Source: Candidatus Nomurabacteria bacterium RIFCSPLOWO2_01_FULL_39_18
GTDB lineage: Bacteria; Patescibacteriota; Minisyncoccia; Phycocordibacterales; UBA9973
Assembly (NCBI GenBank): GCA_001787005.1
Contig: MFUV01000010.1
Coordinates: 73,955 to 137,954, forward strand
Direction: 5' to 3'
DNA: 64,000 nucleotides
Shown here in pieces: positions 255 to 64,000 of the stretch. Position 1 is the first letter of the stretch. Every line of letters begins with the position of its first letter. The notes below the pieces were generated by a model. The model did not search any database and was not told the origin of the DNA. It saw only the letters and a program-made list of their open reading frames with translations. Position numbers and translations under genes: made by a program.

Positions 255-2012
255 TCAATACACTTCCGCCTGGTAACACTTTTCACAATAAACGATTTCC
301 GGGCGGTCTGGAGAATATGAAGTTTCGAATTCTACTTCGCACTTGCTTCCTCCATGAAAATGATTTGTTTTGCTTCGCCCGTCGTAGCTTTGCGAAGTCG
401 GGTCGCACATACAAGTACGGTGCCAAAGCTTAAAAGGATTTCTGCGTTTTAATCTAGCCTCGTGACGACAATAAAAACATCGTCTTGGAATCGGAATACT
501 CATTTTTCTGTAGAATATTAATTCATTGGGAATGATCTTGTAATTTCTTTTACAATTTATGCAAACTAAAATTTCTTCGAGAATGCTGTCTGTCACTTCG
601 GTGATTGAATCAGGAATATCTTCTGGCAATAGTGTTTCCTTCCCCACCGTCCGTTGTAAATTATTTTGCCAGTTAAATCCTTTTTTGAAAGCTTCTTCCC
701 TAGAAAGTGGAAAGTGTTCTTGTGCTTCTGTTTCATTGTAGCCAAATGGAGATAGTTCTGCAGGATAAAATTCGCCAAATTTGTAACCGTTTTCCTTCTT
801 GTCTTTGTAGGGTATCTTGTTCATCTGCTCTATAATTTTCGGCACAAGTTTTTCGTATTCCTCTTTTGTATATTGTTTATTGAAAATACAATATTTGGCA
901 TTACGAAGACCTATACAACCAAAACAGTATTGGCAATTATGACAATGCTGGGTATATTCAATGTCCTGGCTTTTCCAGGAATAAATCCCGAACAAATTCC
1001 TGTTTGATTGATCGCAAGTAACACTTTCATAACATTCACTAAGTTCTCCTCCTCCCGCCATGTCATATGAATCTTTCATATTAGTACCAAAATCACAATA
1101 TTTACAATTCTCTGAATTTTTGGCAAAAAAAGAATTTTTTACATTCTTACAGCCCGAAATAACATCACCACTAACATTGACATTATGAATTCCATCCACA
1201 AAACGCCTCGGGTATTTTAAAATAAATTCATCGTACTCTTTCTGTGCTCTTTCTACTCCAGAAAATGTATCGAGCTTATAACTTGCTAAAATCTTCTCAT
1301 ATTCTTCTTTACTATATTGCTCGTTTTTAAAACAATACTTTTTACCAACCAATTCAGCACACATAAAGCAATTAGAGCAGTCTTTGCACCGATATAAAAA
1401 TTGTGAGTCAATGCAAGCTATATTTAACCGAGAATATTTAAGTTGATATGAGTTTCGAGCATTAAAACATTCATAAAGCCATTCACTTTTTGATCTGATA
1501 TTGATGCAATCCATCATATCTCGCCCTTCTAGAATAAAATAACTATACATCACATTTTCAATTCTCCACGCAATAAAAACCATGTAGCAATTTTTACCAA
1601 ATGCAAAGTCTTGTGTATATTCACAATTGACACTCCCAATTCCATCATCATTTACCAGCGCCATGTGCGGTACTTTTAATACAAGTTCTTTAAATTGTTC
1701 AAAGAATGACCGCGAGAAATCATAATCTTGCCCATAATCTTTTGGATCCCACTTATCGCTCCACCAGCATTTATTACAATAAATAACGGCACTGGACTCT
1801 TTAGAATAAATAGTTACCACAGATTTTTTACATAAATCACAAGTTCTGTTATATAGAGATGTGTTGTTTTTCCAAGCCCATCTCCTTTGCCTTCTGCAAT
1901 CCGGACAAAATGTCGGCGGAGGAACTTTGATCTTTTCATAAAACCCAAAGTCATCAGGCTCGATGGTGAAGTTTTGTTTACAATTTTGACAATTTTTTGT
2001 TTCGCTTTTCAT
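255..2012 (-). CDS. Cysteine-rich paralog A (585 aa), unknown family
   Basis: The N-terminus (CQNCKQNFTIEPDDFGFYEKIKVPPPTFCPDCRRQRR) and C-terminus (IVYCEKCYQAEVY) are shared with ORFs 2057..3751 and 43057..44766. Internal repeated modules are present: CxxCxxCxxC and KYC(I/F)xN(E/K)QYSKEEYEK. N- and C-terminal Zn-ribbon-like FY-K-I-VP-P-xCPxCRxxRR units occur. Confidence 0.75.
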   Translation of the reverse strand: MKSETKNCQNCKQNFTIEPDDFGFYEKIKVPPPTFCPDCRRQRRWAWKNNTSLYNRTCDLCKKSVVTIYSKESSAVIYCNKCWWSDKWDPKDYGQDYDFSRSFFEQFKELVLKVPHMALVNDDGIGSVNCEYTQDFAFGKNCYMVFIAWRIENVMYSYFILEGRDMMDCINIRSKSEWLYECFNARNSYQLKYSRLNIACIDSQFLYRCKDCSNCFMCAELVGKKYCFKNEQYSKEEYEKILASYKLDTFSGVERAQKEYDEFILKYPRRFVDGIHNVNVSGDVISGCKNVKNSFFAKNSENCKYCDFGTNMKDSYDMAGGGELSECYESVTCDQSNRNLFGIYSWKSQDIEYTQHCHNCQYCFGCIGLRNAKYCIFNKQYTKEEYEKLVPKIIEQMNKIPYKDKKENGYKFGEFYPAELSPFGYNETEAQEHFPLSREEAFKKGFNWQNNLQRTVGKETLLPEDIPDSITEVTDSILEEILVCINCKRNYKIIPNELIFYRKMSIPIPRRCFYCRHEARLKRRNPFKLWHRTCMCDPTSQSYDGRSKTNHFHGGSKCEVEFETSYSPDRPEIVYCEKCYQAEVY

Positions 2013-2056: not shown

Positions 2057-3751
2057 TCAATACACCTCCGCTTGGTAACATTTTTCGCAATACACTATCT
2101 CAGGTTTGTCTGCAGACCAAGAAGTTTTTATGTCTTTGCCACACTTGGCGCATTTGCGATCGTGGATTTCAATAGGATTTAGAAGTTTCGTGCGCGCACG
2201 ATCACGACAAAGTGGACAGTTGTGCGGAATGGGAAGATTGAAACGTCGATAGAAATCAATTTCCATTTTAATTAGCCGATAATTTTTACCGCACTTCTCG
2301 CATTTTAAGATTTCATTGACTATATCATCTTTCACATCTCTTATGTGTTTAGGTATTCTAATCGTTGCATCTTGATAATCTTTGGGTTCAACATCACGCC
2401 AGGCAAAACCTTCTTTTATCGCTTTTCCTTTCCCTAAAGGAAACCATTCCATACTTGTTGATTCATTGTAAGCCCAAGGGGAGATTTCTGAGGGCATCAT
2501 TTCGCCGTATTTATGAATTCTCCCAATTTTATCAATATAAGGAATCTCCATCATTTGTTTACGCAATTTTTCTGTGATCTTTAAATATTCTTCCTTTGAA
2601 TATCTTTTATTTAAAATACAGTACTCCCCTTTTTTAATGCCCACACAGCCAAACATATTATTGGACGAGTGACATCCAAAACAAAATTCGAGATTGCTAG
2701 CGTTGTAGTTCCAAACACTAAATTTTATATTAGACACTTGCAATCCAACCCAGCATGACTCATATATTAATTCTCCTCGCTCACCGAACTCGGTGTAATC
2801 ATAGCAATCAGCAATCGGTCCAGCTTTTAAAAACTGACAGTACCGACAGTCTTTCGCTTTGCGCACCATGTATGAATCGTGGACATTTTTAGAATTGTAA
2901 ACGTACTCCCCCGTTGTATTAACACTGTTTCTATCGTTGAATTGTTTGCGTGGTTGTGTGAGAAGAAATTCCATCGTAGATTTGCGAAATTTCTCCAGAC
3001 TTTCAACAGACCCAAAATCGTATTTTTTAAAAATTTTTTGAAATTCTTCTTTAGAATATGGTTCGTTGAAAATATGGTATTTCTTTTTTGTAAGATTGGC
3101 ACAGCCAACACAATCAGAACATCCTACACAACTACGGCAAAACCACATATTCATAGAACCGACGACATCTTCACAGAAAAAAGTTTGATAGCTGGAGTGG
3201 GTAATAACATTGCCATAGCCCATTTGATCATGGCGTGTCCAAGAACAGTCAATGGAGTCTTTAATGTCAGCAACTTCATTTAAATAAGCACAGTTTTCTG
3301 CATAATCAATTCTAAAACATAAATAACAATCTTTGCATTCTGCGGCAGCATTGCAATAATCACTCCGAACCATTGACGCATGTTCAGTATAGAGAGCAGG
3401 CAACGGTACGTCGCGCATAAGTTCACCAAACTGTTCTAGAAAAGATCGTGACCAATCAATTTCTCTGCCATGTTCCTTAGGATCCCACTTATCACTCCAC
3501 CAAATATCCTGACGATAGACTTTATAGGGTGAATCTTTGTGATGCGTCGTGATAACCTCCTCGCCAGTAAAATCGCATTTTCTTTTATATAAAATTTGAT
3601 AGCCCTGCCAAGAAAGCCTGCGCTTAAGTCGACATTCTGGACACCAAGTCGGTGGTGGCACTTTGATTTTCTCATAAAATCCAAAATCCGAAGCGTCTAT
3701 TGTAAAAGAATTTTTACAATTTTGACAAACCCTAGTTTCTTCCATATGCAT
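2057..3751 (-). CDS. Cysteine-rich paralog B (564 aa), tandem with paralog A
   Basis: Same architecture as paralog A: N-terminal CQNCKNSFTIDASDFGFYEKIKVPPPTWCPECRLKRR, internal CRSCVGCSDCVGC and YSKEEY modules, C-terminal IVYCEKCYQAEVY. Confidence 0.75.
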   Translation of the reverse strand: MHMEETRVCQNCKNSFTIDASDFGFYEKIKVPPPTWCPECRLKRRLSWQGYQILYKRKCDFTGEEVITTHHKDSPYKVYRQDIWWSDKWDPKEHGREIDWSRSFLEQFGELMRDVPLPALYTEHASMVRSDYCNAAAECKDCYLCFRIDYAENCAYLNEVADIKDSIDCSWTRHDQMGYGNVITHSSYQTFFCEDVVGSMNMWFCRSCVGCSDCVGCANLTKKKYHIFNEPYSKEEFQKIFKKYDFGSVESLEKFRKSTMEFLLTQPRKQFNDRNSVNTTGEYVYNSKNVHDSYMVRKAKDCRYCQFLKAGPIADCYDYTEFGERGELIYESCWVGLQVSNIKFSVWNYNASNLEFCFGCHSSNNMFGCVGIKKGEYCILNKRYSKEEYLKITEKLRKQMMEIPYIDKIGRIHKYGEMMPSEISPWAYNESTSMEWFPLGKGKAIKEGFAWRDVEPKDYQDATIRIPKHIRDVKDDIVNEILKCEKCGKNYRLIKMEIDFYRRFNLPIPHNCPLCRDRARTKLLNPIEIHDRKCAKCGKDIKTSWSADKPEIVYCEKCYQAEVY

Positions 3752-10045: not shown

Positions 10046-11269
10046 ATGCAAAACCCATTTCAAAACGCAATGGCACAGCTCGACAAAGTCGCCAAAATCA
10101 AAGATTTTGGCGATGAGTTTATCGCGTGCCTCCGACAGCCCGACCGAGATATTAGAATTACAATACCGGTCAAAATGGATGACGGTTCTATGAAAGTTTT
10201 TGAAGGATACCGAGTGGAATATAACAATACTCTGGGTCCCTATAAGGGCGGAATTAGATACCATCCAAACACGGAAATAAACGAGGTGAAAGCATTAGGT
10301 TTCTGGATGATGCTCAAATGCGCCGTAGCTGGAATCCCCATGGGCGGAGGCAAGGGCGGTGTAACTGTCGAGCCAAAAGATTTGTCCAAAAAAGAATCAG
10401 AAAGACTTTCTCGCGGATGGATACAAAAACTTTCTGATGTCTTGGGACCATACAAAGATGTCCCTGCGCCGGATGTAAATACCACGCCCGAGATAATGGA
10501 ATGGATGGCGGACGAATACGGAAAAATAACTGGCGATAAAACCGGAGCAGTAATAACGGGCAAGCCATTGGATAAAGGTGGCTCCGAAGGGCGAAATATA
10601 TCCACAGCACAGGGCGGATTTTATGTCTTTGAGACACTTCGTAGAGAGCTTGGATTGCCAGAGAAATGCAAAGTAGTAATTCAGGGATTTGGAAATGTGG
10701 GAAATAACGCCGCAGATATTTGGAGCAAGGCAGGACATGTAGTAATAGCGGTTTCAGATTCCAAAGGAGGAATTTATAAAGCAGACGGGATTGATATAAA
10801 AAAGCTCGCTGAGCATAAAAAAAATACTGGTTCACTTTCTGGCTTTGAAGGAAGCTCAAATATTACCAATCAAGAATTACTGGAGATAGAGTGTGATTTA
10901 TTAATTCCTGCTGCTTTTGAAAATGTCGTCACCGAAGCCAATGCAGGAAAAATTAAGGCAAAGATCGTCCTAGAGCTCGCCAATGGACCCACAACTCCAG
11001 AAGCGGATGAAATTTTGTTTAAAAAAAACATTCCCGTAATTCCAGATATCTTGGCAAATTCTGGAGGCGTTGTAGTTTCCTATTTTGAATGGGATCAAAA
11101 TTTGAAACAGGAGCACTGGAGTGAAAAAGAAGTCTTCGAAAAATTACGTCCGATGCTTGAAGATGCTTCAAAAAAAATATTAGAAAAGGCAAGAGAGGCA
11201 AACACCTCTCTCCGCATGGGCGCCTTCATCTTGGCACTTGAGAGAATAAAAGAAAAAATGCGCGGTTAG
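10046..11269 (+). CDS. gdhA: Glutamate dehydrogenase
   Basis: Catalytic lysine motif GIPMGGGKGGVTVEP. Rossmann motif GFGNVGNNAA. Size is 407 aa. Confidence 0.9.
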   Translation: MQNPFQNAMAQLDKVAKIKDFGDEFIACLRQPDRDIRITIPVKMDDGSMKVFEGYRVEYNNTLGPYKGGIRYHPNTEINEVKALGFWMMLKCAVAGIPMGGGKGGVTVEPKDLSKKESERLSRGWIQKLSDVLGPYKDVPAPDVNTTPEIMEWMADEYGKITGDKTGAVITGKPLDKGGSEGRNISTAQGGFYVFETLRRELGLPEKCKVVIQGFGNVGNNAADIWSKAGHVVIAVSDSKGGIYKADGIDIKKLAEHKKNTGSLSGFEGSSNITNQELLEIECDLLIPAAFENVVTEANAGKIKAKIVLELANGPTTPEADEILFKKNIPVIPDILANSGGVVVSYFEWDQNLKQEHWSEKEVFEKLRPMLEDASKKILEKAREANTSLRMGAFILALERIKEKMRG

Positions 11270-19126: not shown

Positions 19127-19182
19127 TGTTCAGTGTTAAACACTGTTAAACACTCAGTGTTGAACATTTCGATGTTGAACAT
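19127..19182. repeat. REP-like hairpin repeats, family A (units gtgttgaacac / tgttgaacatttcg), 5' flank of RAYT-1
   Basis: Tandem imperfect palindromes: cagtgttaaacactgttaaacactcagtgttgaacatttcgatgttgaacat. Confidence 0.7.
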
Positions 19183-19635: not shown

Positions 19636-20301
19636 ATGAGAAATATAAAAATAGCACCCGGAGAATATTATCATATTCTTAATCGTGGAATGAGTAAGCA
19701 ACTAATTTTTCATGACAATAGAGATAGAACAAGATTCCTCTTTCTAATTTTATACTTTCAATCCCCTGTTACAATTCAAAATATACATCGTCCAGTAAAG
19801 TCATTTGTTGAACACTCGGTGTTTAACATTGATAAAGAGATTGAGCAAGAAATTGTTACAAGGAAGTTCGTAGAACTCGTCTCCTTTTGCTTAATGCCAA
19901 ATCATTTTCACTTAATCGTCAAAGAAATCGAGGAAAATGGTATGGCTAGATACATGCAAAGAGTCTTGAATGGTTATACCAAATACTGTAATACAAAATA
20001 CAATAAATCGGGACATCTTTTTCAGGGACCATATAAAGCAGTACATATAAGGAGTAACGAGCAACTTTTATATTTATCTTCATATGTCCACAGGAATCCG
20101 AGAGAACTGAAAGAGTGGTTAAATAAAGAAAGTAGTTATCCATGGTCAAGTTACCAAGATTTTATAAAGAAGAATAGGTTTAAAGAATTACTTGTTCTTG
20201 ATATAATCAGTGGACAATTCAAAAATAAAGACAAGTATAATAAATTTATAAAGGAGAGTACGGCAAAATTATTAAAGGAAGAACTGGATTGGATAGACTA
20301 G
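19636..20301 (+). CDS. REP-associated tyrosine transposase-like (IS200/IS605 Y1 HuH transposase family), RAYT-1
   Basis: GEYYHILNRG near the N-terminus, the HuH motif CLMPNHFHLIV, and the downstream QGPYK with Tyr. Size is 221 aa. A REP-A copy (tgttgaacactcggtgtttaacat, 19806..19829) lies inside the ORF, in-frame. Confidence 0.75.
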   Translation: MRNIKIAPGEYYHILNRGMSKQLIFHDNRDRTRFLFLILYFQSPVTIQNIHRPVKSFVEHSVFNIDKEIEQEIVTRKFVELVSFCLMPNHFHLIVKEIEENGMARYMQRVLNGYTKYCNTKYNKSGHLFQGPYKAVHIRSNEQLLYLSSYVHRNPRELKEWLNKESSYPWSSYQDFIKKNRFKELLVLDIISGQFKNKDKYNKFIKESTAKLLKEELDWID

Positions 20302-20304
20302 TAA

Positions 20305-20351
20305 GTGTTCAGTGTTCAACACCGAGTGTTGAACACTCGGTGTTGAACAAT
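20305..20351. repeat. REP-like family A, 3' flank of RAYT-1 (perfect hairpin gtgttcaacac-cga-gtgttgaacac, then a second overlapping hairpin)
   Basis: The 11-bp stems are exact reverse complements. It sits in inverted orientation relative to the upstream copies, a REPIN-like arrangement. Confidence 0.8.
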
Positions 20352-20428
20352 ATGCGGGATTAGTTTAGTGGCAGAATGAGTCCTTCCCAAGGATTAGACG
20401 GGGTTTCGATTACCCCATCCCGCACCAG

Positions 20429-30629: not shown

Positions 30630-31520
30630 TTATATACCCCACACAGCAGTATTGGCAAGTGAAACAAGGCGATTATTCGACTTTTCCAAGACACAGAGCT
30701 CCCCGGCTTCTGTTTGACCCTTAAAATCTTTCATTATTTCAGCAAGCGCATAACTAAGTGAAAGCGCAGAAGAATCGGTAGCATAAGAAGTCAAAATCAC
30801 AAAAAGGGGCTTGTCGGTTAGAACCCTCCCGACCAAAGAAAGCAGTTTCGGCAACATTTCTTCTATCTTCCATACTTCCCCCCTGGGACCACGGCCGTAC
30901 TTGGGCGGATCCATAATCACAGCGTCATACTTATTGCCTCGTTTTATTTCTCGCTCTAGAAATTTTGTGGCGTCATCTTCTATCACCCGCATTGGCATTT
31001 TATCAAGGCTAGATAATTTTTGATTTTCTTTCGTCCAATTTAATACTTGCTTCGAGGCATCCACATGCGTCACATCTCCACCAGCCCTGAGAGCAAATAG
31101 GCTCGCCACACCGGTGTAGCCGAATAAATTAAGAAATTTTATTTTCTTGCCGGAGTTTTTTATTTTATTCTCTATGTAATCCCAGTGATTTGCCTGCTCC
31201 GGGAAAAATCCCAAATGTCTAAATGGTGTGGGAGAAACAAAAAATTTAATTCCCCTGTATTCCATCTCCCACTTCGTGTCAAGGTTCAACCTTGACATTT
31301 GCCACCCGGCTTTGGCACCAACTTTCGAGCTCCAGAATTTTCCATCAACATTTGTCCACTGTTGTTGAACACTCGGTGTTGAACATTTCGGCCAGACAGC
31401 ATCTTCATAAGGACGAATAAAAGTGTATTTCCCGAATCGCTCCAGCTTCTCTCCACCACCCGTATCTAGAAGCTCGTAGTCCACCCAATCCTTTGAACAA
31501 AAAATTTTTATCTGGTTCAT
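30630..31520 (-). CDS. Class I SAM-dependent RNA methyltransferase, RlmI/RlmK-like
   Basis: LNLFGYTGVASLFALRAGGDVTHVDASKQVLNW is SAM-binding motif I with a post-I acidic residue. Motif IV is VIMDPPKYGRG. It parallels E. coli RlmI (VLNVFSYTGGF...VIVMDPPKF). It hosts a REP-A insertion. Confidence 0.65.
   Translation of the reverse strand: MNQIKIFCSKDWVDYELLDTGGGEKLERFGKYTFIRPYEDAVWPKCSTPSVQQQWTNVDGKFWSSKVGAKAGWQMSRLNLDTKWEMEYRGIKFFVSPTPFRHLGFFPEQANHWDYIENKIKNSGKKIKFLNLFGYTGVASLFALRAGGDVTHVDASKQVLNWTKENQKLSSLDKMPMRVIEDDATKFLEREIKRGNKYDAVIMDPPKYGRGPRGEVWKIEEMLPKLLSLVGRVLTDKPLFVILTSYATDSSALSLSYALAEIMKDFKGQTEAGELCVLEKSNNRLVSLANTAVWGI
31361..31392. repeat. REP-like family A copy inserted in-frame within the methyltransferase gene
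   Basis: tgttgttgaacactcggtgttgaacatttcgg encodes ...PKCSTPSVQQQW... on the minus strand. It is identical in core to the RAYT-1 flanking repeats. Confidence 0.75.
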
Positions 31521-43056: not shown

Positions 43057-44766
43057 TTAATACACCTCCTGCTGATAGCATTTTTCACAATATATTATGG
43101 GTGCGTATTTTTCGGGATATACCGTCTCTACCTCTGTGCTGCATTTAGAGCAATTGCGGTTGATAATTTGCAAAGGTGGACGCTTATCCATCCGCCGTAT
43201 ATGCCTGATATCAAAACACACTCGCGGTAGTGGTAAATTCATTCTTCTGTAAAAAGATAATTCATTTTCAGTAATTCTATAGGCTCCTACAGAGTTGGGG
43301 TTGTCTTTTTCGGCACACTCAATAACCTCGTTTAAAATCGAATCACTTACCTCCTTGATGGTTTCAGGCAATTCCGAGGCCTTAAGGGTGACTTTGTAAT
43401 TTTTCTTACCTTTATCTATCCAGCGATAACCATTTTTAATTGCCTCTTCTTTAGTGAGGGGATAATAATAATTCGCAATTGTTTCATTGTAAGCAAAATC
43501 AGAAAAATTGGCCGGAAAGTTCTCTCCAAATCGATACTCCAGACCTCTATTATCTATATAAGGTACTTTTTTCATAGAATCAATGATTTCATTTTTAAGC
43601 TTTTCATACTCTTCCTTGGAATATTCTTTATTTAGAATGGAATATTTCCCTTTTTTCAAACCCACACAACCGAAGCAATCATGAGCGCCTGGACAATTAT
43701 TGCAGTAGTATAAGTCGTGCGCACCCATCCAGCACTGATTACAAAAATAAAGGCGAGCAATATCAATGCCACAATTCTGGGATTCGTAGATTTGCTCCGC
43801 CTTATTGCCCCATTCAAAATAATCCATACAATCCTCAGCGTTGAAAACCATAAATAGGTACTTACCGTCTCTTACGCTTTCGCAGTCGAAAGATTCCTTA
43901 ACGTTTTTACTATTCATAAACCAGTTACCTGAAACACTCTCAGACTTAATAGACATTATGGCCCTCTGTGGAAATTTCTTCCTAAATTCTTCAAATTCAA
44001 CCTTCATTTTTTCAATTCCAAGAAAAGTATCTAGTCTCATTTCTTCCAGCTTTTTGAAATATTCCTCTTTTGAATACTTTTTGTTCCAAATACAGTACTC
44101 CGCATTAACCAAATTCACGCAACCCACACAATTCGAAGAATTTCTGCATGCGTAAATAAAAGAACAATCACGGGAATCCTTACTCTCTTGGCCAAATTTC
44201 ACATTGTAGCAGTTCGCGCAATTAACACACTCATAACACAGCTCGCATTCGAAAAGCCATGAGCCATCACAACAATCAAGAATATGTTTTTTGCCGTTGT
44301 AAAGATATAAAGAATTTTCTGGATAAGAACTACGAAAAACCATATAAGAATTTTTAGGATCGGTGACGCGATGAGCATAGGGGCTGTTTATGGCAAACCC
44401 TTGCCGAACTATAGACATTCTAGGCACTTTATTTTGAAGTTCTAAAAATTGTTCGAAGAAAGATCGGCTTGGGTCATAGTCCATGCCGTAGGAATAGGGG
44501 TCCCAAACATCGGAGTACCAAATATCAGTTTCGTAAACAGGAAACTGGGTGTCCTCCGAATACATGCTAAAAATCTCTTTACCGGAAAAACTGCATTTTC
44601 TTTTATATAAAACAGTCTCGCTTGTATGTATAAAGCGCCGAAGCAGTCTACATCCTGGGCAAAAAGTCGGAGGAGGTACTTTTATTTTTTTATAAAATCC
44701 GAAATCATCAACTTCAATAGTAAAGTCCTTTTTGCAGTTTTGACAGACCTTGGTTTCAGCTTCCAT
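43057..44766 (-). CDS. Cysteine-rich paralog C (569 aa)
   Basis: Same N-terminal (CQNCKKDFTIEVDDFGFYKKIKVPPPTFCPGCRLLRR) and C-terminal (IIYCEKCYQQEVY) ends and internal YSKEEY/CxxC modules as ORFs 255..2012 and 2057..3751. Confidence 0.75.
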   Translation of the reverse strand: MEAETKVCQNCKKDFTIEVDDFGFYKKIKVPPPTFCPGCRLLRRFIHTSETVLYKRKCSFSGKEIFSMYSEDTQFPVYETDIWYSDVWDPYSYGMDYDPSRSFFEQFLELQNKVPRMSIVRQGFAINSPYAHRVTDPKNSYMVFRSSYPENSLYLYNGKKHILDCCDGSWLFECELCYECVNCANCYNVKFGQESKDSRDCSFIYACRNSSNCVGCVNLVNAEYCIWNKKYSKEEYFKKLEEMRLDTFLGIEKMKVEFEEFRKKFPQRAIMSIKSESVSGNWFMNSKNVKESFDCESVRDGKYLFMVFNAEDCMDYFEWGNKAEQIYESQNCGIDIARLYFCNQCWMGAHDLYYCNNCPGAHDCFGCVGLKKGKYSILNKEYSKEEYEKLKNEIIDSMKKVPYIDNRGLEYRFGENFPANFSDFAYNETIANYYYPLTKEEAIKNGYRWIDKGKKNYKVTLKASELPETIKEVSDSILNEVIECAEKDNPNSVGAYRITENELSFYRRMNLPLPRVCFDIRHIRRMDKRPPLQIINRNCSKCSTEVETVYPEKYAPIIYCEKCYQQEVY

Positions 44767-56890: not shown

Positions 56891-57280
56891 TTACGGAGTA
56901 GCTGGTGCGGAGGAAGTTTTCTGACTTTCTCCAATATTCAGAGGCGCTACTTCGATAATTTTGTTCATTGATACACTGTAAAGAAAAGCCTTCTTGGCAG
57001 TGGTATAAATAAGTACCTTATCTCCCTTTGCCGCCCCCGCAAAAAAGGCTTGGCTTTTTAACGCCTCGGGATCAGCTACAGTGGCCACTGTCGGCACCTC
57101 ACCTTCAGGCAGAATCACTAAACGACCCACTTTCGCCACTAGATCGGCTGTTTCTTTTTGAGTTACTGCTTGAGGATTTTGTTTAATTAAACTCCACTGA
57201 TAATAAAAGTATGCAGCGAAAATCACCGCAACGACTGCAATCAACAAAACTACCCTATCTATCATTTTTTGTCTATCCAT
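56891..57280 (-). CDS. Small N-terminally anchored protein (paralog family, member 1)
   Basis: 129 aa. N-terminal TM. Collinear with 57787..58188: (D/A)xxKxxxxLxxLxxLPxxVPTxATVxDP...QAFFA.A.G.KVL. Confidence 0.5.
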   Translation of the reverse strand: MDRQKMIDRVVLLIAVVAVIFAAYFYYQWSLIKQNPQAVTQKETADLVAKVGRLVILPEGEVPTVATVADPEALKSQAFFAGAAKGDKVLIYTTAKKAFLYSVSMNKIIEVAPLNIGESQKTSSAPATP

Positions 57281-57372
57281 AATAATTATGATATTAACTT
57301 ATAATAAAACTAATGCTAATGTTCAGTATATAACAAGGCAGTATGAAGCGCAATGTTTAAAAACTCCCAAAT

Positions 57373-57768
57373 CTACGGGGACTTATATTTCTTTATCGCC
57401 TCCACGACCTTGCCATTATCTTTCATATTTTCCCAAAATAAAATTTTATCTTTCTCGATGTACATAGCGTCGGTTGGCCCATGGAGCTCTGATCCTAGCT
57501 TGATTAGCTGAAGTTTTTGGTTGGGATCACTTGACGAAATTTTGCTTCCAGCTTGTTGAAGCAAGTCGGTAGCTTGTAAATAATAAACATCAGTTAATTT
57601 AATAAAGCGGCCGCTAGCAGAAATCTTGCCAAAATACACTTGGCCGTTATCAAGGAAAACTGCCTGGTATCCCTCGGCATTAATCTTGAACCAGATATTT
57701 TGCCCATAAAAATAGCAAACAACGGCTCCAACTAATAAAACTGAAAAAAATATTTTCCTTATATCCAT
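57373..57768 (-). CDS. Small N-terminally anchored protein (related architecture)
   Basis: 131 aa. N-terminal TM. Weak similarity to the neighbours. Confidence 0.45.
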   Translation of the reverse strand: MDIRKIFFSVLLVGAVVCYFYGQNIWFKINAEGYQAVFLDNGQVYFGKISASGRFIKLTDVYYLQATDLLQQAGSKISSSDPNQKLQLIKLGSELHGPTDAMYIEKDKILFWENMKDNGKVVEAIKKYKSP

Positions 57769-57786
57769 AAATGTTTTACAAATAAA

Positions 57787-58188
57787 TTATTCATTTATTT
57801 TCTCTATGTTGGGAGTTATTGCGCTGCCCCCTTCCTCTTCTGTCAGGTTAACGGGGCCGACTTCAATGACTTTATGTGTAAATGGGTCGTAGAGAATAGC
57901 TTTCTTGGCAATCGAAAAAACTAAAACTTTGTAGCCAACCTTTGCATTAGCAAAAAAAGCTTGATCAGAAAGTTTAGACGGATCTGTAACTGTCGCGATA
58001 GTTGGCACTTCATCCGGCAGTAAAATTAATTTGCTCAAGTCTCTAATCAGTTTTTTATTTTCATCTTCTGTCGCAATTCCCGGATTGTTTTTAAGAGTGT
58101 TCCACTGCCAGTAGAAATATCCCCCTGCAAGGAGACTGCCCACAAACAATATTATAAAAGACAATATAAGTATTTTTATTTTTCTCAT
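57787..58188 (-). CDS. Small N-terminally anchored protein (paralog family, member 2)
   Basis: 133 aa. Clear paralog of 56891..57280. Confidence 0.5.
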   Translation of the reverse strand: MRKIKILILSFIILFVGSLLAGGYFYWQWNTLKNNPGIATEDENKKLIRDLSKLILLPDEVPTIATVTDPSKLSDQAFFANAKVGYKVLVFSIAKKAILYDPFTHKVIEVGPVNLTEEEGGSAITPNIEKINE

Positions 58189-58230
58189 GGTTCCATAATT
58201 ATAACAAATTCTAATTTGGAAGCCAATCCT

Positions 58231-58292
58231 ACCAAGGATTTACCAAGGGGAACCCTTGGTAAATTTAGTTGCTACCAAGGGGAACCCTTGGT
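58231..58292. repeat. REP-like hairpin repeats, family B (taccaaggggaacccttggta), two copies 5' of RAYT-2
   Basis: Stem ccaaggg/cccttgg with loop gaa. The copies are 20 bp apart. Confidence 0.75.
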
Positions 58293-58303
58293 ATGATGAC
58301 TAG

Positions 58304-58960
58304 ATGCAACGAAAAACAAAATTTGTGATCGGAGAGTTTTATCATATTTACAATCGTGGAGTAGAAAAAAGAATTATTTTCCCAAATATATCTGATTATA
58401 AAAGATTTCTAGCTCTTTTATATCTTGCAAACAGTAATGAAATAATACAATTCCGAAATGATTTTTCTAGAACTTTCCTTGAGAAAATTTTCGAGAAAGA
58501 TCGAGGCGAGCCGTTAGTTGCCATTGGAGCATATTGCTTAATGCCAAACCATTTTCATTTATTACTCACTCCCCTGGTGGAGGGAGGGATATCAAAATTC
58601 ATGTTAAAGCTTCAGACTGGGTATTCTATGTATTTCAATAAAAAGAATGATCGGGTTGGGGGGCTTTTCCAGGGAGTTTTTAAATCACAACATATAGATA
58701 AAAATGAATATTTAATGTATATTTATGCGTATATTCATTTAAATCCAACGAAGTTAAAAAATTCAGAATGGAAAACACAACCAAAAAGTTTTTTAAATAA
58801 ACTAAAAAAATTTATTGCTGAATATCCATATTCTAGCTTGCAAGAATATTTATCTGGAAATTATAGAATACTAAACCCTAAGCCATTCCCGATGGAGAAA
58901 AAAGATCTTATTGACCACGATTCTATGATAGATGATTTTAGCGAGGTATTACCAAGGTGA
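58304..58960 (+). CDS. REP-associated tyrosine transposase-like (IS200/IS605 Y1 HuH family), RAYT-2
   Basis: GEFYHIYNRG. HuH motif AYCLMPNHFHLLLTP. Downstream catalytic Tyr region GGLFQGVFKSQHI. Collinear with RAYT-1 and about 30% identical by eye. Confidence 0.8.
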   Translation: MQRKTKFVIGEFYHIYNRGVEKRIIFPNISDYKRFLALLYLANSNEIIQFRNDFSRTFLEKIFEKDRGEPLVAIGAYCLMPNHFHLLLTPLVEGGISKFMLKLQTGYSMYFNKKNDRVGGLFQGVFKSQHIDKNEYLMYIYAYIHLNPTKLKNSEWKTQPKSFLNKLKKFIAEYPYSSLQEYLSGNYRILNPKPFPMEKKDLIDHDSMIDDFSEVLPR

Positions 58961-58986
58961 ACCCTTGGTAAATTAGTAAATTAGTG
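58950..58986. repeat. REP-like family B copy (taccaaggtgaacccttggta) overlapping the RAYT-2 stop, followed by a direct repeat aaattagtaaattagt
   Basis: Same stem as the upstream copies. Located between RAYT-2 and the end of the giant surface-protein gene. Confidence 0.7.
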
Positions 58987-61900
58987 AAGAAGCCAATTCC
59001 AAAGTCTCTGTAGCCAATCCGGGGCGGCATTGATAACTGAAGCTCCTCCGCCACCGCCACCGCCACCCTGAGAAGACAAGCTACCAGCATAGAAATCATC
59101 ACCTCTAGTGTCCGTGAGGTTGCCATATCCAACCAATCCCGGTCGCCCGCTTGAATATGTAGAATCAGACACATTCGTTACTGTTGTGCCATTTTGTTTG
59201 AGAGTCAAATTAGTTCCAGAAATTTCCAAACGCAACACATCGCCTGGAGAAAACGCAGTGCCAGTATAGTGCGTAGTCGGAGTACCCGCATTCCATTCAA
59301 TTATTTTTACCGCGGTATTGCTATCTGAATAAGCTCCGTACCCGCTTTGGTCAGACTGAAGTCTGACTCCCCCACCTATATAGCCACCAGAAGCCAAAGC
59401 TCCCAGGGTAATTTCTATATATTGATTATCATTGAAACTGCCAATATTCCATTTCGCCATTGTGTCTGTGGCACTGGCATTACTGTGAATGGCATTGGTG
59501 TTTATAGCAAAGGCGGAACTTCCGCCAAGCAATGCCCAATTGGAATCATATGTGGTCAAAGCTGTGGCATCGCTGCCCGTAAATGCTTGGGGCAATGTTC
59601 CCCCGCCACCGCCAGAGATTTCCCCGCCGCTTCCGCTACCACTGTTTCCGCCACCGCTCTGAGGAGTTCCTGCTCCTGAAACATTTTCCGCGCCGGGAGC
59701 AACAATACCCTGTAAAACAAATGCCCAACAACTGCCGTTGTTGCCGCCGTTTAGGATTGTTATGCTTTTGGGAACTGACTGCGTACTTGGAGCGCAGGCG
59801 GAATTTCGCACAACTATATAGCTCAAACTAATGGTGGCGCCCGCATCAATATAAACCGTCCATTGACTGGTCCCATCTATAGAATCCAAAACAATATTAC
59901 CACTTTCCGAAGAACCAGTCAGAGTTATATCATTGTAAAAGCCGAAGGTCGAGCCTTGATTGAAACTGATTTTTTTGTTAGGACTGGTGGATGTAAAATT
60001 ATGAAAATCCGTCGAACTGGTTCCTTGGAAGTTGATGTTTTCAACTTGTACACCATTTACTGAGGCGGGCGCAACCACCACCGTGCTAGTTCCTTTATTA
60101 AATGTGCCGTCGTTTGTAAAAGTGGCTCCGACATCAGAACCCGCGATAGTGATAGTGGAATTGTTGGCAGTCAAGGTTCCTTTGCTTGTAATTGTGATAG
60201 AGCCAACGGTGAGGGGGAAATTGCTCGCGGCGGAAGTATTTAAAATATCGGCATTGGTAGAACCAGTGTTACCGATAGTCAAGGCATTTGTAGTTGTAGT
60301 CGCCGCTCCTAGAGTAAAAGTAGAAGCCGCATTACTATCAGAAGTAGTGCCAACGCCAAGATTATAATAATCAGCTGGTGTCACGGTGATACTACCAGCT
60401 CCAGTGGGATAAGTATAATTAAACGTAGAAGTATTCGTAGGGCAAGTAGCAAATGAACAAATCGTGCTAGAAGCGTTGAAAACCAGCGGGGTGCCGTTGG
60501 CTGATAAGCTCCAGACAATATCTCCGGGATCTAATACGGTTGCGGCGCCATCACCTGCTTTACCAATGTTGAGTGTTCCAGAAATAGTAACATTGCCCGT
60601 ACCGCCTACTTGGGTGGTAATCGTTGGAGTAACGGCAGTTCTGCCGAAAGTCAGGTTAACAAAATTCCAATCATTAGAACCAGTAGGTCCGAAATTTTGA
60701 TTGGCGCCCACCAGCTGTTCAAAAGTCCCGGCAGTGGTTAAGTTAACAGTTCCAGTTCCTGTAACATCCCCCGCTCCGGTTATCGTACCGTTGGCAGTTC
60801 CAGACAGAGTACCCGTTACAACCAAGCTACCGGTCTGAGTCCAAGCCCCCGTTCCTGTGGTAGCTGTCGCGCCAGTTGAAATAGTAGTCATCCCACCAAC
60901 CACAATGGCAGAAGAAGGCATAGTATAAGTACCTGTTCCACCCAAGGTAAGATCATTAAATGTTGTGGCCGTAACATTCGCAGTGGTGCCAGAATATGTA
61001 ACCGTACTGCCAGTTACTGTAAATGTATTGGATCCAGACAAGGTAAGTGGTGAAGAAGTTCCTGTTAATTCTAAAGTATCGCCACTAATATTTAAATTCT
61101 GTGAATCGTCAACTGTTATGGAAGTGGCTTTAACATTCGATGAGGTTGAAAGGGTGGTCGCACCGACATTGGCGGAAACTTGCACAATTCCGATACTTTT
61201 TGATGTTACGTTATCATCCGTCCAAGTTTGAGTACCGCCACCCCCTTTGGCGAATACAACAATTCCAGCGCCGGTAGTAATTTCTGCCCCAGAAGTAATG
61301 ACCAAATTCCCTCGCAAGGTTGTATTCGTAGCTGGCATGGTATAAGTGCCGGTGCCGCCTAAAGTTAAATTATTATATGTGGTAGCGGTAACATTAGAAG
61401 TGGTGCCGGTATATTCCACTGTCGAGGTACTCGCGGTAAATGTGCCTCCTGCCGTGATATTGAGAGGAGTAGCACCGCTTCCGGCGGATAGGGTCAAAGT
61501 TCTAGTTGATAAATCTAAAATATCTTTGAAAGAACCATCGGAGGCATGACCAATGTTTATGCCTCCCGCAGCTGTAGCGTCCCCAGCCAGGGTATATGTG
61601 ACTGCCGTGCTGTCGGATGTCGAGCCGACACCCAGATTATTATAAGTAGCGACCGCAACATTGGTCGCAGTCGTGCCGATGTAATTCATCGTATGCGTGC
61701 CACTGCCTGTAAAAGTTCCGGAATTTACGAACGGCGTACCTGATGCGGAAAGAGTGATGCTGCCGGAGCTTGGAGCAATAGTGCAAGTCGCGCCATTAGT
61801 CAAAGTTCCCGCCACCGTGAAAGAAGTGTTGGCAGTAACAGAAGTAGATGAACAAGCAGTGGTCAAATTTTGAAATGTCAGAGTGCCGGAATTTGTAATC

Positions 61901-64000
61901 GCTCCGCCGCCGTTCACCGTGATCGTGCCGGCCCCCGGTGTGAAAGTTCCCGTAACATTGAAAGTCCCGCCCACTATCGCAGTCTGCGTGCCACTACTGA
62001 TTGTTCCGCTAATTGTTAAATTATTAAACGTAGTATTGGCAATGGTAGGACTCGAAGCGCTTGAATAATCCACCGTGCTTCCTGTTACCGTAAAGGTATT
62101 GCTTCCGGATAAAGTCAGGCCGGTCCCAGTCAATGTTAAAGTATCAGAACTGATGTCAAGATTCTGGCTGGTATCAACTGTGACAGATGAGGCTTTAACA
62201 TTCGAAGAAGTTGAAAGAGTCGTGGGCGTGCCATTTACTGAAACTTGAACCGTTCCAATATCTTGCACTCCAGCTGTACTATCCGTCCAAGTTTGCGTCC
62301 CACCTTTGGCAAAGATAATCGTCCCGGCTCCGGTGGTTACAGTTGTGTTTACGCCGATAGCAAGATTCCCGCGCAAAGTTAAATTAGACCCAGGAAGTGT
62401 GTATGTCGCGGAACTGCTAGGCGCAAATGTCAGATTGTCGTAGGTTGCGGCCGTAATGTTCGTGGCGCTCGTCCCAGTATAGGATATGGTATTGCCGGCT
62501 GTTGGAGTAAAGGTTCCAGTTTTAACAAAAGGCGTCCCCGAACCAGAGAGAGTAATGGTCCCCGTGCCAGTGGCAAGAGTCGCGCCACTGGCAATAGTCA
62601 AAACTCCAGCCACTCCGAAGCTCGGGTTGTTCGCAGTGCCTGTCGCTCCGGCATTGGTACTATCGCCAATGGTAAGATTCCCGGCAATATCGCTAAGAGT
62701 TCCCGGTAAAACTAAGGGCGTAACATCAGCTGGTTTTAAATTCAAGTGTCCATAAGTGGCGTTCGTAATTGTGAGACCATTGGTTTGAAAATAAGAGACC
62801 GTGCTAGTGGCCCCATAAGTATAAGTAGAGAAGCTTGCCGGATATGCCGAGGCTCCGGACATTTCAAAAAATGCGCCGTTGGAAACTGAAAAGGTGTCCG
62901 ACGCTCCATTGCCGGTAATAGAAAATCCTCCGTTTTTCAAAGTACCTAGAGAGACGGAAAGAGCTGTGGCGCTAGCTTTGTCTGTCTCAAGATTAGCTCC
63001 AAGCGTCCACTCTCCATTCGAACCATTAAAATTTAAAGCGCTAAAATCAGAAGTTCCGGATAAAGTTCCGCCCAAAGTATTGCCTGTGTCCGTCGCGGTA
63101 AAGGCGACCGTCCCGCCATTGTTGGCAAAAGTTCCAGAGTTTGAATAATTGCCGCTCAACGTGAGCGTACCGGAAGTCGAAGTAAATGTGCCGGAAGTAA
63201 TAGCGAGGTCTACCCCGCTTATTGCTCCGCTTCCGCCGTTAAATGTTCCAGTTTGAGTTATATTTCCGCTGGCTGTGATTATCCCAGTGGTTGTTTGGGT
63301 AAGTGTTCCAGTGATAACTGCATTGTCCGTAGTCAGAGTTTCATCCGAGTCAACGGTCAAAGTGTCTCCGGATTCGACTTGAATAGTTTCATCCGAGTAA
63401 GAATTGGAACAACCCTGGACATCGAGCGCTGTAACCGAACCAGCGTACATAATATCTTCATCAGCATTGCAATCATACAGATCTAGATCCGCCACTGTCA
63501 GACTTTTGTCGTCCACCGAACCGACCGATAGAACATTTGTATTGAGAACAATTCCAGTCATGTCTCCTGTGCCGTCATATTTTGCCACAGCGGTCGCTTC
63601 CGAAGAATCGGCAATGTCTCCGTCTCCATCGGTCAGGAAAACCGTGATGGCTTGGTCGGACTGCACGCTTACGCTTGAAATGGACCAAATGCCACCACTG
63701 GTCGTGCCGGTTTGAGCCGCTAGCGATCCATTGACTGCCACTCGCACCGTTAGAGAGTCAGCCGCATTGGTAGTGCCGGAAACCGTAGCGGCCGCTGGAA
63801 AGATCCAGCAAGTTCCATTATTGCCTCCATTAGTGGAAGTCGCATCGAGAGTCACATTCTCCGAAGTAGAGCAAGCTCCGTAAGCAATACTGGCATAGGT
63901 AACGGATGATGGCTGAGCCACGGCAAAATCCGCCAGCCACGGATTGGCCCCGTCGTCCGAGGTGATGGTAATTAAATTGCCCGATGTCCCGGTGATTGTA
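58981..64000 (-). CDS. Giant Thr/Gly/Ser-rich beta-repeat surface protein (adhesin-like), 5'-partial: continues beyond the window end
   Basis: At least 1670 aa. Repeated about 75-aa units (…TLSTSSNVKASS(V/I)TVDxSQNL(D/N)ISxDTL(T/E)LTG…SGSNTFTVTGSTV…). Gly-rich tail GGGGGGGGASVINAAPDWLQRLWNWLLH. The reading frame stays open upstream of the GTG at 63921 to position 64000. Confidence 0.7.
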   Translation of the reverse strand, partial: TITGTSGNLITITSDDGANPWLADFAVAQPSSVTYASIAYGACSTSENVTLDATSTNGGNNGTCWIFPAAATVSGTTNAADSLTVRVAVNGSLAAQTGTTSGGIWSISSVSVQSDQAITVFLTDGDGDIADSSEATAVAKYDGTGDMTGIVLNTNVLSVGSVDDKSLTVADLDLYDCNADEDIMYAGSVTALDVQGCSNSYSDETIQVESGDTLTVDSDETLTTDNAVITGTLTQTTTGIITASGNITQTGTFNGGSGAISGVDLAITSGTFTSTSGTLTLSGNYSNSGTFANNGGTVAFTATDTGNTLGGTLSGTSDFSALNFNGSNGEWTLGANLETDKASATALSVSLGTLKNGGFSITGNGASDTFSVSNGAFFEMSGASAYPASFSTYTYGATSTVSYFQTNGLTITNATYGHLNLKPADVTPLVLPGTLSDIAGNLTIGDSTNAGATGTANNPSFGVAGVLTIASGATLATGTGTITLSGSGTPFVKTGTFTPTAGNTISYTGTSATNITAATYDNLTFAPSSSATYTLPGSNLTLRGNLAIGVNTTVTTGAGTIIFAKGGTQTWTDSTAGVQDIGTVQVSVNGTPTTLSTSSNVKASSVTVDTSQNLDISSDTLTLTGTGLTLSGSNTFTVTGSTVDYSSASSPTIANTTFNNLTISGTISSGTQTAIVGGTFNVTGTFTPGAGTITVNGGGAITNSGTLTFQNLTTACSSTSVTANTSFTVAGTLTNGATCTIAPSSGSITLSASGTPFVNSGTFTGSGTHTMNYIGTTATNVAVATYNNLGVGSTSDSTAVTYTLAGDATAAGGINIGHASDGSFKDILDLSTRTLTLSAGSGATPLNITAGGTFTASTSTVEYTGTTSNVTATTYNNLTLGGTGTYTMPATNTTLRGNLVITSGAEITTGAGIVVFAKGGGGTQTWTDDNVTSKSIGIVQVSANVGATTLSTSSNVKATSITVDDSQNLNISGDTLELTGTSSPLTLSGSNTFTVTGSTVTYSGTTANVTATTFNDLTLGGTGTYTMPSSAIVVGGMTTISTGATATTGTGAWTQTGSLVVTGTLSGTANGTITGAGDVTGTGTVNLTTAGTFEQLVGANQNFGPTGSNDWNFVNLTFGRTAVTPTITTQVGGTGNVTISGTLNIGKAGDGAATVLDPGDIVWSLSANGTPLVFNASSTICSFATCPTNTSTFNYTYPTGAGSITVTPADYYNLGVGTTSDSNAASTFTLGAATTTTNALTIGNTGSTNADILNTSAASNFPLTVGSITITSKGTLTANNSTITIAGSDVGATFTNDGTFNKGTSTVVVAPASVNGVQVENINFQGTSSTDFHNFTSTSPNKKISFNQGSTFGFYNDITLTGSSESGNIVLDSIDGTSQWTVYIDAGATISLSYIVVRNSACAPSTQSVPKSITILNGGNNGSCWAFVLQGIVAPGAENVSGAGTPQSGGGNSGSGSGGEISGGGGGTLPQAFTGSDATALTTYDSNWALLGGSSAFAINTNAIHSNASATDTMAKWNIGSFNDNQYIEITLGALASGGYIGGGVRLQSDQSGYGAYSDSNTAVKIIEWNAGTPTTHYTGTAFSPGDVLRLEISGTNLTLKQNGTTVTNVSDSTYSSGRPGLVGYGNLTDTRGDDFYAGSLSSQGGGGGGGGASVINAAPDWLQRLWNWLLH

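Follow-up and report, generated by a model that had tools for sequence, protein, structure and literature searches.

A Y1 HUH nuclease gene and its private triloop hairpin in Candidatus Nomurabacteria and other bacteria of the Candidate Phyla Radiation

Results

A hairpin-flanked Y1 HUH nuclease gene

The window analysed here is a stretch of 64,000 nucleotides of contig MFUV01000010.1 from Candidatus Nomurabacteria bacterium RIFCSPLOWO2_01_FULL_39_18, a member of the Candidate Phyla Radiation (CPR). It carries two paralogous genes that resemble REP-associated tyrosine transposases (RAYTs; REP, repetitive extragenic palindrome), each accompanied by its own type of short hairpin. We term the open reading frame (ORF) at 58304..58960 on the forward strand RAYT-2 and its palindrome hairpin B; hairpin A is the palindrome of the paralogue, RAYT-1. 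RAYT-2 encodes a protein of 218 residues which, as first annotated, contains GEFYHIYNRG and AYCLMPNHFHLLLTP, and which Pfam, an alignment of 39 homologous sequences, a profile search of the PDB and Foldseek identify as a Y1 HUH nuclease.

The sole Pfam domain of RAYT-2 at E≤0.01 is Y1_Tnp (PF01797, IS200-like), with an E-value of 9.5e-8 and 32.6 bits against a cut-off of 23. In the 39-sequence alignment of RAYT-2 homologues, the HUH residues His83, Phe84 and His85 (codons at 58550-58558, forward strand) are invariant, as are Tyr143, His145 and Asn147, and Pro148 is nearly so. Tyr143 (codon 58730-58732, forward strand), located in YIHLNP, is the putative catalytic tyrosine, and the stretch Y143-I-H-L-N147-P148 contains the class 2 signature Y-x-x-x-N-P. 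The tripeptide FQG (LFQG in RAYT-2) is also invariant, and NHFH and YIHLNP are conserved. In the tail motif PYSS, Tyr174 and Ser178 are invariant and Ser177 is present in at least 90% of the sequences; after residue 185 the tail is variable, and part of it is encoded by a hairpin.

A PDB search with the single RAYT-2 sequence gave no match, and Y1 structures were reached by profile and fold search only. The best PDB sequence for the profile built from the alignment is 4ER8 (E. coli TnpA-REP), a weak match (E 0.81) that nevertheless spans both catalytic motifs of 4ER8, VLPEHMH and DYIYINP. The AlphaFold (AF2) model of RAYT-2, with a predicted local distance difference test score (pLDDT) of 73.8, finds 2A6M, 4ER8, 2XM3 and 2F4F as its top Foldseek matches in the PDB, all of them Y1 transposases; the top proteins are IS608 TnpA, TnpA-REP, ISDra2 and IS200, and the best TM-score, 0.56 on the target, belongs to TnpA-REP. 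RAYT-2 is an intact Y1 HUH nuclease of the class that contains the RAYTs.

The original RAYT label holds at the level of this class and not in its canonical sense. RAYT-2 is RAYT-like but non-canonical, because it scores 40.6 bits against the RAYT equivalog NF047646 (REP_Tyr_transpos), half of the cut-off of 80, because its hairpin lacks the GT[AG]G foot, and because its motifs are those of subclass 2.1. A helix-turn-helix (HTH) distal C-terminal domain (Bac_DnaA_C-, HTH_23- or HTH_28-like) was not detected in RAYT-2 by Pfam at E≤0.01.

Hairpin B at the locus

Hairpin B, TACCAAGGGGAACCCTTGGTA, is a perfect palindrome of 21 nt, TACCAAGGG-GAA-CCCTTGGTA, with a 9-bp stem closed by a GAA triloop. 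In agreement with the initial annotation, two copies lie upstream of RAYT-2 and one overlaps its stop codon: copies 1 and 2 are exact (58241-58261 and 58273-58293), and copy 3 (58950-58970) has one mismatch (TACCAAGGTGAACCCTTGGTA). The loop reads GAA on the forward strand in all three, and no further copy with up to three mismatches occurs elsewhere in the window. One hundred dinucleotide-preserving shuffles gave no match, against the three sites observed; of perfect hairpins whose stem has 9 bp or more and whose loop has 3 nt, the window holds seven, against none or one in shuffled sequence. In single-stranded form the three copies fold into stems of 9-12 bp, with energies from -8.1 to -11.3 kcal/mol and z values from -3.8 to -5.2 (no shuffle is as stable), and loops of 3 nt in copies 1 and 2 and of 5 nt in copy 3. 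The stem of copy 1 extends to 12 bp over 58238-58264 (-11.3 kcal/mol, z -5.2).

Copies 1 and 3 lie within a 36-nt direct repeat, 86% identical, that consists of a 5' half-arm followed by the hairpin. The left unit (58230..58265) joins half-arm TACCAAGGATT to copy 1 and the right unit (58939..58974) joins half-arm TAGCGAGGTAT to copy 3, both on the forward strand and both delineated by the 21-mer match, the repeat and the fold. The mismatch of copy 3, a single G>T that turns GGG into GGT, creates the TGA stop codon of RAYT-2 (58958-58960); with the G retained, the frame would run on into ...LPRGTLGK, as does the tail of homologue P0014.

Copy 2 occupies the 17-nt spacer of a promoter-like sequence, TTGCTA-17 nt-TATGAT with a TG before the -10 element (58269..58297, forward strand), found by a consensus scan and by its recurrence in orthologues; the -10 element stops 6 nt short of the RAYT-2 ATG. 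The arrangement TTGCTA-hairpin-TATAAT-6 nt-ATG recurs in most orthologue loci, and in RAYT-1, likewise, 6 nt separate a TATAAT from the ATG, and the 3' arm of hairpin A (TTGAAC) occupies the -35 position. This sequence probably works as a promoter, and the distance of only 6 nt between its -10 hexamer and the ATG suggests that the RAYT-2 mRNA would be leaderless. As the gene-proximal hairpin B sits inside the promoter-like spacer, RAYT-2 could conceivably regulate its own expression through hairpin binding or extrusion. A reading of the hairpins as an RNA element or terminator was dropped, since Rfam (E≤1) gave no RNA family in 57500-59500 and a terminator scan gave none at the window hairpins.

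Duplications on the 5' side of hairpins are seen upstream in L071/L032 and in L084, and in the window at 58230-58240 and 58939-58949. Among them are a 57-nt tandem repeat, made up of hairpin, promoter and the first 24 nt of the coding sequence (CDS), and partial duplications of the 5' arm (TTGCTACCAAG, TACCAAGGATT and TAGCGAGGTAT). They may be footprints of cleavage and rejoining, or of slippage.

Protein and hairpin are paired across CPR relatives

Hairpin B was located in other genomes by two scans. The pattern ACCAAGGNGAACCCTTGGT was searched in one genome per species, covering 185,579 species of GTDB, and gave 38 loci; the exact 19-mer was searched in JGI metagenomes and gave 93. Matches were fetched with flanks of up to 10 kb, and orthologues of RAYT-2 were sought in these loci by tblastn. 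Among the species genomes, all matches that form the perfect palindrome (N=G) are in CPR genomes, whereas those with N=A, C or T fall in unrelated phyla, in high-GC coding sequence or in scattered contexts. The species representative of the source genome gave no match in the GTDB scan.

A RAYT-2 orthologue adjoins an identical hairpin B in nine distinct loci, and these nine proteins are 72-75% identical to RAYT-2 and 72-85% identical to each other. The hairpin is placed 30-31 nt before the ATG, in + orientation, in eight of the nine loci (at -47 in the other, L123). A second hairpin B follows the gene in all of them but L083; its offset ranges from +646 to +1367 and its loop orientation is variable, being flipped in at least four loci. 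Beyond the hairpins, these loci have in common the 5' flank TTGC and the promoter-like -10 element, and nothing else. The identical 21-mer is retained across genomes of 29-54% GC and in unrelated contexts.

Among more distant relatives the hairpin differs. Two close paralogues from one Nomurabacteria metagenome-assembled genome (MAG) and a homologue of 56% identity carry derived hairpins with compensatory changes in the stem, namely CCTAGGG-GAA-CCCTAGG, GTAGCAAGGG-GAA-CCCTTGCTAC, and a decaying TAGCAAGGG...CCCTTGATA at a dnaE-linked locus. Homologues of 36-52% identity, including RAYT-1, each have a wholly different palindrome built on the same plan, a stem of 9-13 bp with a loop of 3 nt, and placed at about -40 to -60 and at +616 to +690, often with a flipped copy in the CDS at about +170 or +448. 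The proteins of L100 and L122, 49% identical to each other, have part of the stem in common (ACTTGG-GG). Such a pattern is as expected for co-divergence of a protein and its recognition hairpin, which the comparison of these sequences supports. That the pattern runs across clades also supports the idea, put forward in the initial annotation, of a private hairpin for each RAYT: orthologues keep the identical hairpin, and distant clades have different ones at the same positions. RAYT-1 is 38% identical to RAYT-2, and hairpin A is, as first noted, unrelated in sequence to hairpin B; both have the same architecture.

The family is large. More than 7,900 proteins of a 90%-clustered database match it, and the named members are nearly all from Nomurabacteria, Paceibacterota, Daviesbacteria or the 'Patescibacteria group'; a 50%-identity library holds 16,945 matching clusters at E≤1e-3, of which 314 remain at E≤1e-30. 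In so huge and much-duplicated a CPR family, the presence of two such genes within 64 kb, initially thought notable, is unremarkable. We note that solitary copies of hairpin B occur 0.2-2.5 kb from nuclease genes of other clades that have their own hairpins (L074/L082, L090/L105, L100/L109 and L122), which suggests that nuclease genes and foreign hairpins cluster.

Hairpin B is dispersed at low copy number

Hairpin B is not confined to the RAYT-2 locus; had it been, the locus would, by the initial annotation, have been a simple IS flanked by local inverted repeats. The source genome has a fourth exact copy (L001:19710-19730), 9.0 kb past the end of the window, in frame in the hypervariable linker of a 252-residue protein with an HSP20 domain; homologues of this fusion protein reach 56% identity at most, and with the linker so variable the inserted unit is not definable there. 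In the fetched loci we count 95 distinct sites, 16 of them adjacent to a nuclease gene and 79 solitary. Four solitary copies are spread over four contigs of one Saccharibacteria-labelled MAG, and contigs of 174 and 325 kb have one copy each. Hairpin B is dispersed, yet it is no abundant repeat like the classical REPs. The term 'REP family' used at first is therefore apt as to dispersal but generous as to copy number, and at least a quarter of the solitary copies are intragenic.

No target duplication is apparent in the flank logos of 74 solitary sites. The flanks of these sites (L010-L140) are rich in A 5' of the hairpin and in T 3' of it, and at 12 of the 74 the core is centred in a longer, site-specific palindrome with at least five, and up to 15, extra complementary positions. 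The GT[AG]G foot was not found at hairpin B, the gene-proximal copies having TTGC instead; in the distant clade L149, GTAG...CTAC lies inside the stem. The loop orientation flips between orthologous hairpin B sites. Inverted doublets are rare (topA in L037/L064/L110, and L107 and L112), and the copies in the window are direct.

Intragenic copies in housekeeping genes

The 21-mer is free of stop codons in all six frames and has the length of seven codons. It encodes YQGEPLV, TKGNPW or PRGTLG in the GAA orientation and YQGFPLV, TKGSPW or PRVPLG in the flipped (TTC) orientation. Of the 79 solitary sites, at least 21 are in the interior of ORFs that encode 150 or more residues. Hairpin-bearing genes confirmed by Pfam encode PolA (DNA polymerase I), PheT, ArgS, TopA, PurH, a class-V aminotransferase, dihydroorotate dehydrogenase (DHODH), KsgA and TrmD, to which LepA is added.

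The hairpin of LepA (L039:846-864) falls in a G-domain beta-turn loop; the two orthologues nearest to this protein, at 92% and 89% identity, are without the hairpin. The same loop holds the inserts SPLQGEGLG, NGPERSEGQ and HPALKGTPPQQGGEDSSPPKLGGVPEGGG in other CPR LepA proteins (alignment of P0121-P0240), which suggests a hot spot at which insertions recur, perhaps of other hairpin types. In topA (L037:547-599, L064 and L110), two inverted copies 6 nt apart form an in-frame, REPIN-like doublet that encodes NTKGSPWRNDQGEPLVN. KsgA (ksgA/rsmA) has hairpin B in three genomes (L050:10365, L111:222 and L100:2429): in two of them the C-terminal position coincides but the loop has opposite orientations (YQGEPLV versus YQGFPLV), and in the third it lies elsewhere (IPRGTLG). 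At the site used in this third genome, the KsgA gene of L050 has a possibly decayed copy (LRTLG).

An in-frame palindrome missing from close orthologues is a trait of the Rickettsia palindromic elements (RPEs); it is shown here for the hairpin B family and not for the window locus itself. The intragenic hairpins are not new in kind, for REPs inside genes and the RPEs of Rickettsia have been described before (PMC3733652). Within the literature library searched, combining RAYT or REP with CPR, Patescibacteria or Saccharibacteria returned no report of RAYT/REP systems in the CPR, nor of intragenic copies there; a 2026 preprint mentions only a K07491 match in an archaeon.

RAYT-2 resembles a resident gene

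Sixteen public contigs encode the exact RAYT-2 protein, and the neighbouring genes are the same on all of them; each of the six exact proteins looked up, RAYT-2 and five others (P0001, P0003, P0004, P0006, P0014 and P0105), occurs in one context only. No near-identical second copy of the RAYT-2 gene was seen among the exact-protein look-ups. Four orthologue loci from different CPR genomes (L036, L010, L076 and L032) have the order ruvB-yebC-[gene]-ruvC, and two different genomes (L144 and L151) have dnaE-[gene]-x-pth in common; the DNA identity of orthologous CDSs is 72-87%. The ruvB-yebC-[gene]-ruvC loci correspond to the Holliday-junction resolution gene cluster, with one extra gene in two of the four. 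Viral contigs of IMG/VR contained neither hairpin B nor the protein family, and so lend no support to a phage vehicle.

An empty site, or a close orthologue in the same synteny, was sought, and the closest relatives, P0003 (79%) and P0004 (78%), proved to be in other contexts; element boundaries are for this reason not definable by an empty site. Apparent strain variation upstream of RAYT-2 (L002, L008) was rejected as differences in gene calling, the DNA being identical. RAYTs have been described as having a housekeeping-like distribution (PMC5581495), which that of RAYT-2 resembles, unlike that of active IS200 elements. RAYT-2 looks like a single-copy, vertically inherited and domesticated gene rather than a jumping insertion sequence (IS).

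Discussion

Relation to known Y1 systems

RAYT-2 is, by its motifs alone, closest to TnpA-Y1 subclass 2.1. What is known of RAYT/REP systems comes mostly from Proteobacteria and a few other phyla, and the surveys of subclass 2.1 do not mention the CPR/Patescibacteria, the host group of RAYT-2. The signature of the subclass comprises NH[YF]H, FQ in place of W[EQ], Y[IV]HLNP and a proximal C-terminal tail with 'SS' (Quentin et al. 2018, PMC6006769). It equals group 1 of Bertels et al. (2017, PMC5581495) and largely corresponds to the TIRYTs/TIRtrons (Di Nocera et al. 2013, PMC3733652). RAYT-2 agrees with these proteins in all four motifs and is similar to them in length (~220-240 residues), and the likeness extends to low copy number and divergent paralogues; some TIRYT genes, too, are flanked by self-complementary repeats that form small families. 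It differs in that neither the HTH/DnaA_C-like distal domain nor the GGGGWSAS motif of the terminal inverted repeats (TIRs) is detected. The main difference concerns the hairpins. Automatic and manual searches found no REP-like sequences beside subclass 2.1 genes, the canonical REP-associated subclasses being 2.2 and 2.5 (PMC6006769), whereas here perfect triloop hairpins stand at essentially every member examined.

With canonical RAYT/TnpA-REP proteins (E. coli YafM, 4ER8; Pseudomonas; subclasses 2.2 and 2.5), RAYT-2 shares the Y1 HUH fold and Y-x-x-x-N-P, a single-copy gene bracketed by its own palindromes in a REPtron-like manner, one hairpin type per paralogue, and co-divergence. The differences, beyond the lower profile score and the missing foot, lie in the repeat: canonical REPs have longer, imperfect stems and tens to hundreds of copies, while hairpin B has a perfect 9-bp stem with a triloop and few copies per genome, is seldom arranged in inverted REPIN doublets, and is intragenic for a large share. 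In its in-frame palindromes in housekeeping genes, notably those of replication and repair, tolerated in loops and linkers, hairpin B recalls the RPEs and intragenic REPs. RPEs are longer, however, with most intragenic inserts being dimers or groups that encode 20-30 amino acids, against 21 nt for hairpin B; and the CGTC repeats, RPE-4 and RPE-6 among them, have no association with transposase genes (PMC3733652), whereas hairpin B is tied to a clade of Y1 nucleases.

Proposed action of the nuclease on a cognate hairpin

We favour a reading, with a probability of roughly 0.65, in which RAYT-2 is a subclass-2.1-like Y1 nuclease with a cognate hairpin, acting on single-stranded DNA in the manner of TnpA-REP and IS608 and maintaining or spreading low-copy hairpins. 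It starts from the fold and motifs of RAYT-2, the conserved association of protein and hairpin, their co-divergence, the dispersal of the hairpin and its intragenic copies. From homology and co-divergence, we infer that RAYT-2 binds, cleaves and mobilises hairpin B. If it works as IS608 TnpA and E. coli TnpA-REP do, the protein would bind hairpin B in single-stranded DNA, would cut and rejoin beside it by means of Tyr143 and a metal bound by the HUH motif, and would in this way copy or move hairpin units. The proposed mechanism would account for the solitary 21-mers, including the in-frame copies in loops and linkers of housekeeping proteins, as well as for the clade-specific hairpins.

Several observations weigh against this reading. 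RAYT-2 is distant from the solved structures (12-16% identity; Foldseek E ~2e-3). Only one to four exact copies of hairpin B are present per MAG, which is weak for an actively mobilised repeat, and 74 kb of the source genome hold a single solitary copy. The flanks of the 74 solitary sites have no guide motif and no cleavage motif, only a T at -1 and an A at +1. No clean 21-nt insertion was seen, the hairpin-bearing LepA gene having a net +15 nt in a variable loop, and the hairpins of the dnaE-linked orthologues are decaying.

Three other explanations have to be set against a nuclease that processes its hairpin. RAYT-2 may instead be an autonomous, minimal IS200-like IS, a unit of ~745 bp (58230-58974) whose hairpins are the subterminal hairpins of the left and right ends. 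The fold matches the TnpA proteins of IS608, ISDra2 and IS200, the gene is hairpin-flanked as in the IS200/IS605 family (subclass 1.1), orthologues occupy several genomic contexts, and in the window the hairpins are on the same strand and in the same orientation with a 36-nt direct repeat at both ends, as expected when a single strand transposes; hairpins that agree in orientation at the two ends are also seen in several other clades. The shared orientation and the terminal repeat in the window leave the IS reading some weight, yet we consider it unlikely. The transposases of IS200/IS605 have Y-x-x-x-Q and D-H-[VI]-H, whereas RAYT-2 has the class 2 motif in YIHLNP together with NHFH. That family forms multi-copy, near-identical elements with defined ends, guide and cleavage sequences, and no solitary hairpins; no second identical or near-identical copy of the RAYT-2 gene was seen, each exact protein stays in one context, and orthologues with 72-87% DNA identity keep their synteny in different genomes. 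Moreover, the downstream hairpin has no fixed orientation or distance among orthologues (flipped in at least four loci; +646 to +1367), no end is conserved outside the hairpins, and the hairpin disperses alone.

The hairpins could also be regulatory or structural elements of the host (operator, mRNA-stability element, terminator or cruciform) that the nuclease does not process, with the solitary copies made in some other way. The proximal copy does sit exactly in a promoter-like spacer at a conserved position, copy number is low, and a terminator-like role would be sensible for the downstream copy, which lies between convergent genes. No T-run follows that hairpin, however, and the terminator scan and Rfam were empty. 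Copies in the coding sequences of PolA, TopA and LepA cannot be promoters or terminators, the identical 21-mer persists across genomes of 29-54% GC in unrelated contexts, hairpin identity follows protein clade, and Y1 nucleases are known to recognise hairpins (structures 4ER8 and 2VJV). A purely host-regulatory role therefore seems improbable to us. Nothing more than the small copy number in the window speaks for an origin of the palindromes by chance or from the base composition of an AT-rich intergenic region, and the shuffles and the identical sequence that flanks orthologues in many genomes refute it.

A broader possibility, which we hold tentatively and would put somewhat short of even odds, is that the CPR harbour a large, diversified system of subclass-2.1-like Y1 nucleases, each seeding its own stop-free triloop hairpin genome-wide, including seven-codon inserts in loops of essential proteins (PolA, TopA, LepA, aminoacyl-tRNA synthetases, and rRNA and tRNA methyltransferases). 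If so, a REP/RPE-like element would be remodelling proteins in the most reduced bacterial genomes, and its nuclease would be self-regulating, with the hairpin in its own promoter. The reported lack of hairpins has left open the function of subclass 2.1/group 1, the largest Y1 subclass, and the conserved relation of one protein to one hairpin, with compensatory stems, yields a directly testable substrate prediction for it. Were the relation causal, it would give streamlined organisms thought to be poor in mobile elements a means of varying protein loops and of genome plasticity, and would offer a practical natural model for the specificity of HUH enzymes towards DNA hairpins. Were it mere resemblance, RAYT-2 would be one more annotated 'IS200-like transposase' with flanking palindromes.

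Further features of the window

RAYT-1 (19636..20301, forward strand), the comparator, is a protein of 221 residues. Hairpin A, TGTTCAACAC-CGA-GTGTTGAACA, has six sites in the window, distributed much like hairpin B, with five around RAYT-1 and one solitary: upstream at 19144 and 19586, flipped within the CDS at 19806-19828, downstream at 20313 and 20327, and solitary at 31363-31385. The downstream cluster, in the region 20303-20427, folds into a 17-bp composite stem (-20 kcal/mol) and stops 2-5 nt before tRNA-Gly(CCC) at 20354-20427. A flipped copy of a gene's own hairpin inside its own CDS, in frame at about +170 or +448, is seen in RAYT-1 and in L074, L082, L100, L109 and L122, and the RAYT-2 clade has none; these copies recall subclass 2.4, in which REPs are inserted within tnpA-REP genes.

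The solitary hairpin A is one of two in-frame hairpins near the N-terminus of an S-adenosylmethionine (SAM)-dependent methyltransferase (ORF 30630-31520, reverse strand; Pfam Methyltrans_SAM), where it encodes ...PKCSTPSVQQQW...; the other, at 31277-31297, is of a third type, TGTCAAGGT-TGA-ACCTTGACA, encodes ...QMSRLNLDTK... and has no matching nuclease gene in the window. Two more perfect palindromes were noted. The one at 219-243, CCCCTCTCCTT-GTC-AAGGAGAGGGG, has the same design (11-bp stem, 3-nt loop, then a partial third arm), lies just downstream of the stop codon of the ORF at 255-2012 (reverse strand) and has no nuclease gene nearby. The one at 10089-10113, TCGCCAAAATC-AAA-GATTTTGGCGA, is inside a glutamate/leucine dehydrogenase gene (10046-11269).

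Around RAYT-2, a convergent gene for a giant, repetitive surface protein of 2,858 residues ends at 58981, 11 nt past copy 3; 58981-63921 of it (1,646 residues) is in the window and the rest is on L001. Upstream, 56891-58188 encodes three tandem, small paralogous membrane-anchored proteins of 129-133 residues with no Pfam match, and cohesin- and dockerin-like proteins are encoded further upstream. The ORF at 255-2012, itself without a Pfam match, belongs with those at 2057-3751 and 43057-44766 (all reverse strand) to a set of three paralogous genes of ~565-585 residues, segments of which are 66-84% identical in DNA.

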